Origin: an uncultured Tangfeifania sp.
Lineage (GTDB): Bacteria; Bacteroidota; Bacteroidia; Bacteroidales; Prolixibacteraceae
Direction: 5' to 3'
DNA: 24,000 nucleotides
NCBI GenBank assembly: GCA_964528535.1
Contig: CAZGSQ010000019.1
Coordinates: forward strand, 10,605 to 34,604
Shown here: in pieces, positions 10,771 through 12,124 of the stretch
How the letters are laid out: each line of letters begins with the position of its first letter
Numbering within the stretch: the first letter of the stretch is position 1
The notes under the pieces: generated by a model
Database searches by the model: none
What the model saw: the letters and a program-made list of their open reading frames with translations, nothing else
Told to the model about the DNA's origin: nothing
Program-made: the position numbers and the translations under genes

Positions 10771-11757
10771 TTACACAGTCACCAATCCAAAAGCATAATG
10801 GAAAGGAATGATTCTTTTCACATCAATATTTTCTATCCAGGCGGGTTCCTTGTGACTGATCTCAGCTATTTCGCCTGCACTTGTCTCCTTAAATTTTTCG
10901 GCAATGTATCTCAGAGAGTTGAGTTCTGATGCAGAAAACAAGGATTCATCAAATTTTATTTTACCAGAAGGAAGAATCCGCTCAACTTCACCATAACTTG
11001 TTAAAGCATAATCTTTACTGATAATTCCTTCTTCCACCAAGGCCTCAAACAAGTATTCATAATGATTAGGTACTGGACCATGGGGTATTGCGACGTATTT
11101 TAATCCTGTTATACTTTGAGCGGAATCTCTGAAATTTACAAAATCTACGTAGAACAATAGTTTGTTCAACTTAGTCTTAAATGGCTGCATGAGTTCGGCA
11201 AAGAATAGAATTATCTGTTTTGTTTTCTCCGCATTAAACGCTTTAAACCCAGTTGCTATATCAGGTTGACACTGAAACCTCGATAACTGATCAAAACTGA
11301 AACAGTTGTCAGTCTTCAATTTCTGAATGCGCTTTATCAATATCTCGCGTTCTTTTTCTTCCAACTCGCTGTTAAGTTGGATTTGCTGTTCAAAAACTTC
11401 AGGCATGCTCATTAGTTGAATCAAACCTGCATTTGCCTTCGATGGAACTTCTCCAGCTTCATAATTTCTCCATGAATTTGCTCCTAGGCCCAAAATTTCA
11501 GATATCCTCGCTGCTGAGAGATTGTACTTCTGTCTGATTTCCAGTATCTGTTCGGGGAAGGGAATGTGATGTCTTACCCTGTATTGGTTAACTACTTGAC
11601 GGTAATTTAATTCTGAATAATGTTCATCTTCAAAACGCTCTCCTGATTCCTCGCATAGATAAATATGAAACAGAACTGGAAAGGATTCTTTCCGGTAAAT
11701 CATGTCGCGCATCTCTTTGCTGACTTTCATTTCATTACCTGTAATTGGGCTTTTCAT
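10771..11757 (-). CDS. Three-module antitoxin: degenerate MqsA-type zinc ribbon, XRE/MqsA HTH and a Panacea (DUF4065, SocA/GepA-like) domain
   Basis: 328 aa. The N-terminus MKSPITGNEM...IYLCEESGERF aligns by eye with E. coli MqsA MKCPVCHQGEM...LYCVHCEES, but only 1 of the 4 Cys is retained. The HTH reads LSAARISEILGLGANSWRNYEAGEVPS (compare MqsA FGGGVNAFSRYEKG). The C-terminal KLNKLLFYVDFVNFRDSAQSITGLKYVAIPHGPVP is the hallmark opening of DUF4065/Panacea (nt ~10828-11235). Confidence 0.7.
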   Translation of the reverse strand: MKSPITGNEMKVSKEMRDMIYRKESFPVLFHIYLCEESGERFEDEHYSELNYRQVVNQYRVRHHIPFPEQILEIRQKYNLSAARISEILGLGANSWRNYEAGEVPSKANAGLIQLMSMPEVFEQQIQLNSELEEKEREILIKRIQKLKTDNCFSFDQLSRFQCQPDIATGFKAFNAEKTKQIILFFAELMQPFKTKLNKLLFYVDFVNFRDSAQSITGLKYVAIPHGPVPNHYEYLFEALVEEGIISKDYALTSYGEVERILPSGKIKFDESLFSASELNSLRYIAEKFKETSAGEIAEISHKEPAWIENIDVKRIIPFHYAFGLVTV

Positions 11758-11762
11758 ATTTC

Positions 11763-12110
11763 TTATTTAAAAGGGTAGTTCATAATGTATTCGGCGGGAT
11801 GGAATGAAATGCAAATGGTTTCTGAACTGAATTTACCCATGCTAATTTTAATATAAATTTCTGTTCCTTTCATATCCTTGCCAAATACCCACATTGGTGG
11901 AATACCATATATCTGATCTTCAATAGGACCCTGTGAATAATCCTCACAAGTTAATTTTTCAATAATCTCTTTTCTTCTGTTTGAACTAATTTCCAAATCC
12001 AAAAGTGCCTGAGAATTTTTTCCACGCTCGTCCCAAAAGATGATGCGGAAAGTCCGAAACTTTACTTTAAAGTCGCTTAAAAAATGTTCAACCTCTTGTT
12101 TGGTTGCCAT
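11763..12110 (-). CDS. MqsR-like toxin (putative mRNA interferase)
   Basis: Small ORF 5 nt upstream of the antitoxin, in the toxin-first order of mqsRA. By eye it aligns with MqsR: ALLDLEIS / ALLNADELGL, LTCEDYSQG / LSESDFYKS, TEIYIKISM / GQVYLKITV and ICISFH / LIVSFK. The ORF track starts at a TTG (12119); the ATG at 12108-12110 (MATKQEVEHF...) is the more likely start. Confidence 0.55.
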   Translation of the reverse strand: MATKQEVEHFLSDFKVKFRTFRIIFWDERGKNSQALLDLEISSNRRKEIIEKLTCEDYSQGPIEDQIYGIPPMWVFGKDMKGTEIYIKISMGKFSSETICISFHPAEYIMNYPFK

Positions 12111-12116
12111 CGGCTG

Positions 12117-12124
12117 CAAAATTA
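12117..12124 (-). promoter_or_regulatory. Candidate Bacteroidetes -7 promoter box (TAATTTTG, matching TAnnTTTG) for the toxin-antitoxin pair
   Basis: The plus strand reads CAAAATTA at 12117-12124, which is TAATTTTG on the minus strand. It lies 6 nt upstream of the ATG at 12110, implying a leaderless or very short-leader transcript. A single motif match in AT-rich DNA. Confidence 0.3.

Follow-up and report, generated by a model that had tools for sequence, protein, structure and literature searches.

A probable MqsR:PanA-type toxin-antitoxin operon with a zinc-less antitoxin ribbon in a Bacteroidota defense island

The 24,000-nucleotide stretch of DNA analyzed here (the window), part of contig CAZGSQ010000019.1 from an uncultured Tangfeifania sp., encodes a pair of genes whose products resemble the toxin MqsR and its antitoxin MqsA, with the addition of a C-terminal Panacea (DUF4065) domain in the antitoxin. 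The locus raises the question of why one polypeptide should hold two antitoxin-type modules, and whether the second of these serves the adjacent toxin or some other client, such as the KAP NTPase encoded just upstream. We find it probable that the pair is an autonomous, autoregulated type II toxin-antitoxin (TA) operon of the published MqsR:PanA kind, located in a defense island of a Bacteroidota (Prolixibacteraceae-like) genome that includes the KAP NTPase, a type I restriction-modification (R-M) system and McrBC; as part of the same reading, the KAP NTPase is likely a separate, stand-alone defense gene that lies next to the pair by chance.

Based on characterized homologs, we propose that the first gene of the operon encodes a divergent MqsR/RelE-type mRNA endoribonuclease toxin, and that the N-terminal MqsA-like ribbon of the antitoxin binds and neutralizes this toxin. 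The ribbon would be a zinc-less pseudo-zinc-binding domain (pseudo-ZBD), held together by serine and threonine residues in place of cysteines. The helix-turn-helix (HTH) domain would dimerize and, by binding two promoter-overlapping palindromes (AACTT-TA-AAGTT), repress the operon. The strongly conserved Panacea domain would not be the neutralizer but would most likely have a regulatory or sensory role and time toxin release, for example upon phage infection.

Antitoxin architecture and the zinc-less ribbon

Both genes are encoded on the minus strand. The toxin gene (11763-12110; 115 aa from its ATG, with a TAA stop codon at 11763-11765), which encodes a putative endoribonuclease of a divergent MqsR type, lies 5' of the antitoxin gene (10771-11757; 328 aa), and their coordinates agree with the toxin-first order and the 5-nt gap (11758-11762) given in a preliminary description of this DNA. 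The antitoxin is PanA-type, with a pseudo-ZBD, an HTH domain, a helical linker and a Panacea domain. That it starts like MqsA with an MqsA-type HTH, and continues into a C-terminal DUF4065/Panacea extension, had been claimed earlier and is borne out by profile and structure searches. Pfam MqsA_antitoxin (PF15731) matches aa 1-118 across profile positions 1-119 of 131 at 34.7 bits (cutoff 30), and HTH_19 matches aa 70-106; the NCBIfam model TIGR03830 (CxxCG_CxxCG_HTH) scores 59 bits, slightly below its cutoff of 61.8. SocA_Panacea (PF13274, DUF4065) matches aa 197-307 (nt 10837-11169) with an E-value of 1.2e-21 and 78.2 bits (cutoff 25.7), covering positions 1-112 of its 113. The same architecture is found in 927 antitoxin homologs, and homologs with E<=1e-30 form 277 clusters at 50% identity.

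An AlphaFold (AF2) model of the antitoxin, built from 40 diverse homologs, is of high confidence (predicted local distance difference test score, pLDDT, 94.9; predicted template modeling score, pTM, 0.90), and its best Foldseek matches in the PDB are the two chains of E. coli MqsA (3GN5_A, E 8.9e-6; 3GN5_B, E 1.4e-5), with probability 1.0 over 129 columns. The MqsA-N-like ribbon, which lacks zinc ligands, comprises aa 1-62 (11572-11757, minus strand) as judged from the MqsA alignment, the AF2 model and a Foldseek match to the MqsA N-domain (3GA8; 64 columns, root-mean-square deviation, rmsd, 4.5). It is modeled with long strands at aa 11-21 and 24-34 and a helix at aa 45-62, with pLDDT values of 91-97 over aa 1-40, and by analogy with its homologs is the predicted toxin-binding, neutralizing element. 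The following XRE/MqsA-type HTH domain (aa 63-118; 11404-11571, minus strand), recognized by HTH_19 and by Foldseek alignment to the MqsA C-domain, or HTH (3FMY; rmsd 2.0, TM 0.74), presumably binds the operator and mediates dimerization. Five of its positions (G92, N94, E100, G102 and P105) are invariant across the 40 diverse homologs, and N94 aligns by eye with MqsA N97. The Panacea (DUF4065/SocA-like) domain, assigned by Pfam PF13274, occupies aa 176-328 (10774-11232, minus strand).

The literature does not support the view that this architecture is unusual. Among the annotated partners of Panacea antitoxins, MqsR-like toxins are the most frequent (n=90; Kurata et al. 2022, PMC8832971), and an antitoxin with DUF4065 had already been predicted for MqsR in 2013 (Kaldalu et al. 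2013, as noted by Kurata et al., PMC8832971). The MqsR:PanA pair of Bacillus fungorum, with an antitoxin organized as zinc-binding domain (ZBD), HTH and Panacea, has been dissected by Ernits et al. (2023; PMC10440598). In that system the ZBD alone or the ZBD-HTH fragment neutralizes MqsR, Panacea alone or HTH-Panacea does not, and the authors propose a sensor role for Panacea (PMC10440598). Published work thus already accounts for a polypeptide with two antitoxin modules: the N-terminal module neutralizes and regulates, and Panacea serves otherwise.

The window pair shares with B. fungorum MqsR:PanA, and with the MqsR-like PanT group of Kurata et al., a ribbon, an HTH and a C-terminal Panacea domain in the antitoxin, an MqsR-like toxin, and a two-gene operon. 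It differs in that the published N-terminal domain is described as Zn2+-binding, whereas three of the four ligands here are serine or threonine, and in that the window toxin is more divergent and falls below the Pfam MqsR threshold. With its zinc-less ribbon and a toxin whose active site is altered, the pair is a variant of a system that has been published and characterized by experiment; the family assignment holds for the antitoxin and probably also for the toxin. Since the combination of MqsR with a ZBD-HTH-Panacea antitoxin has been both published and dissected experimentally, the locus carries little weight as a discovery, and its unusual feature is limited to the replaced zinc cysteines of the antitoxin.

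Alignment with E. coli MqsA agrees with the earlier remark that Cys3, Cys6 and one cysteine of the second pair have been replaced: C3, C6, C37 and C40 of MqsA correspond to S3, T6, C34 and S37, so that three of the four ligands are substituted and the antitoxin lacks the four-cysteine zinc site of the MqsA family. All of the 120 closest database homologs begin MKSPxTG...YxCExxGE. In a census of about 140 aligned, full-length representatives of 50%-identity clusters, 38 retain all four cysteines (CCCC), with STCT (30), STCS (20) and SACT (7) at the same positions in others; most non-CCCC representatives follow the pattern S-x-x-T...C-x-x-S/T, and some (for example STDT) have no cysteine at all. 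The Ser/Thr ligand pattern is a property of a large, mainly Bacteroidota-annotated clade, beyond a single gene. Because serine and threonine are kept at the ligand positions and the region is modeled at pLDDT >90, the ribbon looks like a stable zinc-less fold and not a domain in decay.

According to Brown et al. (2009; PMC2791442), conservation of the four cysteines among MqsA proteins is perfect; the zinc-less clade is a genuine exception. The concept of a pseudo-ZBD is not new, as Ernits et al. (2023) already describe zinc-less folds of this kind as toxin-neutralizing elements in related systems (PMC10440598). The pseudo-ZBD/PAD1 domains of toxSAS systems (CapRel, PhRel2:PanA; PMC10440598) are likewise zinc-finger-like toxin binders without zinc ligands, and are sometimes fused to Panacea; unlike the ribbon described here, they are paired with alarmone-synthetase toxins and not with MqsR-like RNases. 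In E. coli MqsA, zinc occupancy and oxidation gate degradation by ClpXP (PMC8808172). Such control could not work in the same way on a ribbon without zinc, so that antitoxin stability or toxin release may depend on another input, possibly one that acts through Panacea. The MqsA cysteines are dispensable in a large natural clade, which makes this clade a ready means of asking whether toxin binding requires zinc or whether only regulated stability does.

The loss of three zinc ligands could also be taken to mean that neutralization has moved to the Panacea domain after the ribbon degenerated, with Panacea either binding the toxin directly, in the manner of PanA antitoxins that have no additional domains, or acting as a SocA-like adaptor that delivers the toxin to ClpXP. 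Most of the invariant antitoxin residues would fit this idea: 14 of the 20 invariant columns of the antitoxin alignment A2 fall in Panacea or just ahead of it, including N198, K199, Y203, D205, G218, Y221, A223, G227, E278, H302, W307 and I317. Panacea also neutralizes toxins directly in other Panacea-containing TA pairs (PMC8832971, PMC10440598), and SocA, the antitoxin of the type VI SocAB system of Caulobacter crescentus, shares the SocA/Panacea domain and is a proteolytic adaptor (cited in PMC8832971). The toxin that SocA delivers to ClpXP, SocB, is unrelated, and SocA lacks an MqsA-like module; nothing in the window points to an adaptor function. Against a shift to Panacea, the S-x-x-T...C-x-x-S/T pattern is retained across dozens of 50%-identity clusters, the confidently modeled ribbon still aligns with the MqsA N-domain, Panacea and HTH-Panacea failed to neutralize in the sole dissected homolog, and pseudo-ZBD folds are described as neutralizing toxins in related systems (PMC10440598). 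We consider a transfer of neutralization to Panacea unlikely, and favor the MqsR:PanA reading in which the ribbon neutralizes.

Probable kinship of the toxin to MqsR

The small protein had been aligned by eye with MqsR over the C-terminal beta-sheet, and profile alignment with hhalign reproduces this result: IYIKISM pairs with VYLKITV and ICISFH with LIVSFK of E. coli MqsR (sequence verified against 3HI2), and the position of MqsR K96 is taken by H104. A local alignment covers the C-terminal strands only (E 0.024), and a global alignment, which used a more diverse profile of the toxin family, extends over 88 columns with an E-value of 1.4e-4. In the global alignment Y86 corresponds to MqsR Y81, K88 to K83, and S102-F103-H104 to S94-F95-K96; Y86, K88 and H104 are invariant within the toxin family.

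Orthologous toxins strengthen this connection. In 88 related loci (numbered with the prefix L), we collected as such the open reading frame (ORF) that directly precedes the orthologous antitoxin, and took from these a diverse set of 30. For 29 of the 30, MqsR_toxin (PF15723) ranks first among the Pfam families, and three (L066, L039 and L071; 39-48% identical to the window toxin) pass its gathering score, with 26.7, 27.2 and 29.5 bits, in matches that span profile positions 6-95, nearly the whole profile. An AF2 model of the window toxin (pLDDT 85.7) has an order of helices and strands that agrees with that of MqsR. With E. coli MqsR/MqsA (YgiU/YgiT; 3HI2, 3GN5) the window pair has in common the toxin-first order, the fold of the antitoxin's N-domain and HTH, and the equivalent of MqsR Tyr81, and it differs from that pair in the missing zinc site and in about 200 extra antitoxin residues, which include the Panacea domain.

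Several results weigh against assigning the pair to the MqsR:PanA systems. Profile searches place the antitoxin above cutoff for MqsA_antitoxin and SocA_Panacea, as the earlier family assignments had it, but the window toxin itself scores below threshold against MqsR_toxin (E 0.049, 14.5 bits; gathering score 26.2); with its orthologs above that score, membership in the family rests on transitive homology. Two profiles of the toxin family (alignments A1 and A3) found no MqsR match among PDB sequences. K56, Q68, Y81 and K96 matter for E. coli MqsR toxicity (PMC2791442), and Y81 alone of these is kept in the window toxin: K56 is replaced by Q60 (Gln/Glu in the family) and K96 by the invariant H104, and Q68 is absent, falling in a gap or deletion in the uncertain middle of the alignment. 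With three toxicity residues changed, the activity or specificity of the toxin may differ from that of E. coli MqsR. On the side of the antitoxin, the neutralizing role we ascribe to the zinc-less ribbon is extrapolated from a zinc-binding homolog. Published precedent is mixed: the B. fungorum pair was validated (PMC10440598), but for one Herbaspirillum pair, tried in E. coli, the MqsR was toxic and PanA gave no rescue (PMC8832971).

Some of this evidence would suit a different explanation, in which the small protein has another toxin fold or activity, shares only the C-terminal strand motif with MqsR, and is paired with its antitoxin through the promiscuity of PanA. Foldseek searches of the toxin model against the PDB and BFVD returned no significant match, and none of 120 listed toxin homologs carries a precomputed Pfam domain; both observations, along with the missing match among PDB sequences and the altered toxicity residues, could be read this way. 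This explanation is quite improbable in our view, as it would have to accommodate orthologs that exceed a curated MqsR_toxin cutoff across most of the profile, a global alignment to MqsR of 88 columns, a model whose secondary structure order fits, and a partner with an MqsA-like N-domain in the same toxin-first arrangement as mqsRA. Transitive sequence homology probably makes the toxin a divergent MqsR family member, one with an altered active site and a fold that the structure searches did not confirm.

A more far-reaching version of the MqsR:PanA reading is that the zinc-less ribbon marks a distinct, widespread and mainly Bacteroidota lineage of these systems, in which control by zinc and oxidation has been lost, Panacea has become the sensor of a trigger such as a phage cue, and the active site of the toxin has been remodeled, with Lys96 replaced by His104. 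We offer this proposal only tentatively, and regard it as doubtful.

Probable control region and the upstream KAP NTPase

The KAP NTPase gene (12208-14361, minus strand; 717 aa) ends 88 bp upstream of the toxin on the same strand, as ORF coordinates confirm for the earlier figure when measured from a TTG codon. Starting at this TTG, at 12119, would give a 118-aa toxin ORF (11763-12119). Database gene calls for 781 toxin homologs range from 115 to 119 aa. The ATG is the likelier start, because database calls give 115 aa and the TTG falls within the box TAATTTTG (12117-12124, minus strand), 6 nt before the ATG. This box fits TAnnTTTG, the consensus of the Bacteroidota -7 promoter element, and is a likely promoter element inside the 88-bp spacer; its distance from the ATG implies a leader that is very short or absent. 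A TnnnTTTG box occurs within 60 nt of the start codon in 57 of 74 orthologous loci. A scan for sigma-70 promoters and terminators found nothing above chance, with a sigma-70 model that is unsuited to Bacteroidota.

The spacer also contains two candidate operators. The proximal one is a perfect palindrome, CAACTT-TA-AAGTTG (12143-12156, no strand), located 33-46 nt upstream of the ATG, and the distal one, AACCTTAAAGTA (12186-12197, no strand), is an imperfect copy 42 bp from the first. Allowing up to one mismatch, AACYTTAARGTT has three matches in the 24-kb window, two of them in the 88-bp spacer, against 0.45 expected window-wide. Across orthologous loci, AACTTTAAAGTT with up to two mismatches is present in 65 of 74 upstream regions, at a density of 9.25 per kb upstream of the toxin compared with 0.13 per kb in the remainder of the loci (an enrichment of about 70-fold). 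Its occurrences in these 74 loci cluster at two distances from the start codon, 40-59 and 80-109 nt upstream, and 24 of the loci have a second upstream copy. The E. coli MqsA operator is AACCT-N3-AGGTT, with the variant AACCT-TA-AGGTT at csgD (PMC4894380); by sequence comparison the AACTT-TA-AAGTT palindrome of the window resembles both sites, and the two-copy arrangement recalls the AACCT-N2-3-AGGTT operator of E. coli mqsRA. The conserved palindromes, at fixed positions ahead of the toxin, and the promoter box support an autoregulated operon that moves as a unit, independent of upstream genes. Such a well-defined candidate operator and likely promoter also make experiments on regulation in this clade straightforward. 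A weaker third palindrome of this type, TACTTTAAAGTC, with two mismatches, lies at 12063-12074 within the 5' coding end of the toxin gene, and could be either a chance occurrence or an extra binding site.

The relation between the pair and its neighbors can be followed through the 88 related loci. In 80 of them the gene immediately preceding the antitoxin encodes a toxin homolog, and among the eight exceptions at least three have too little upstream sequence to score. Five loci (L020, L023, L035, L047 and L081) have scorable upstream sequence and an antitoxin but no recognizable toxin gene, and presumably contain orphan antitoxins left after toxin loss. Grouping the 127 immediate flanking genes by similarity gave 113 clusters and no conserved third gene; a HemL-like aminotransferase (a name given from sequence only) lies upstream of the pair in five loci, and hsdS or hsdR in others. 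In L003 and L009, whose antitoxins are 75-79% identical to that of the window, the pair directly follows mnmE and there is no KAP gene, while in the window the type I R-M genes and the KAP gene stand between the pair and mnmE (21643-23115). The simplest reading of this difference is that the R-M and KAP genes were inserted beside a pre-existing TA module. We regard the TA module as autonomous because its flanking genes are unrelated from locus to locus and because the pair stands directly after mnmE in L003 and L009.

Neither tblastn nor phmmer (E<=10) finds a homolog of the window's KAP NTPase type in any of the 88 related loci. A second, divergent type, to which default searches were blind, was seen by eye in L012 and L004 and then identified with phmmer --max and Pfam, after which all neighbors were re-screened by Walker A motif and clustering. 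In L004 and L012 the gene just ahead of the toxin encodes a 930-aa KAP NTPase (Pfam E 1.8e-40) that is only distantly related to the window KAP (E ~1e-5), and L001 has a 121-aa remnant of this protein. An intact KAP gene is thus found in 2 of 63 scorable upstream neighbors, both in close relatives of the window locus, and in both an hsdS sequence lies just upstream of it, the same as in the window; the full order in L012 is HsdM-HsdS-KAP-toxin-antitoxin-McrB-McrC. Because of this local synteny, shared ancestry explains the co-occurrence. The L012 KAP is PifA-like (PADLOC E 7e-48), and PifA is a stand-alone abortive-infection protein.

The preliminary description had nominated the KAP NTPase as a second client of the antitoxin, which would make a three-gene system with the MqsA-like part acting on the toxin and Panacea on the KAP protein; despite the same-strand adjacency in the window, the presence of two very different KAP types in the same slot between hsdS and toxin, and the ability of Panacea domains to neutralize many unrelated toxins (PMC8832971), this idea is largely refuted by co-occurrence, with the pair maintained in unrelated contexts, KAP genes reduced to two PifA-like copies and one remnant in close relatives, and a set of palindromes and likely promoter that the pair has to itself, and we judge it very unlikely. 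Adjacency within a defense island of KAP NTPase, type I R-M and McrBC genes can suggest a functional link, which in this case the co-occurrence analysis removes.

The surrounding defense island

PADLOC has no model that covers the toxin or the antitoxin. The TA family recurs beside or inside type I R-M operons in L057, L065, L049, L010, L012 and L004 as well as in the window; in L057 hsdS lies upstream of the pair and a methylase downstream, and in L010 hsdR lies upstream.

In the window itself, the type I R-M genes show signs of disruption. The frame of the specificity gene hsdS (14373-15770, minus strand) contains an in-frame TAG at 15510-15512, in the first target-recognition domain (…AMYGATIG*TAKLG…), so that the C-terminal 306 aa alone remain as an ORF, while the L012 version is intact at 442 aa; the window gene is either a pseudogene or the product of a sequencing error. 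An IS200-like Y1 transposase gene (17492-17947, minus strand; Pfam E 7e-21) lies between hsdR (18079-21312) and hsdM (15775-17232). Together, the transposase gene and the stop codon in hsdS suggest that this R-M system may no longer function.

Near its N terminus the window KAP NTPase carries a collagen-like stretch of Gly-X-Y repeats, GPQGPQGPQGPPGPPGSSGTSGTSG… (13708-13872; Pfam Collagen E 7.8e-9), which is unusual for the KAP family; the 930-aa KAPs of L004 and L012 begin differently and did not align there. The slot between hsdS and the toxin holds the window KAP at 12208-14361 and its distant counterparts at L012:2609-5395 and L004:2632-5424 (E ~1e-5 between the types), in islands that are otherwise conserved, with 70-75% identity in the TA proteins and 73-77% in McrBC. 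The occupation of one slot by two KAP types looks like cassette-style replacement of a defense gene. On the other side of the pair, the McrB-like GTPase (8192-10711) is long at 839 aa, with the extra N-terminal domains DUF8425 and DUF8426 (precomputed Pfam), and its N-terminal region matches models of the PADLOC candidate system PDC-S02.

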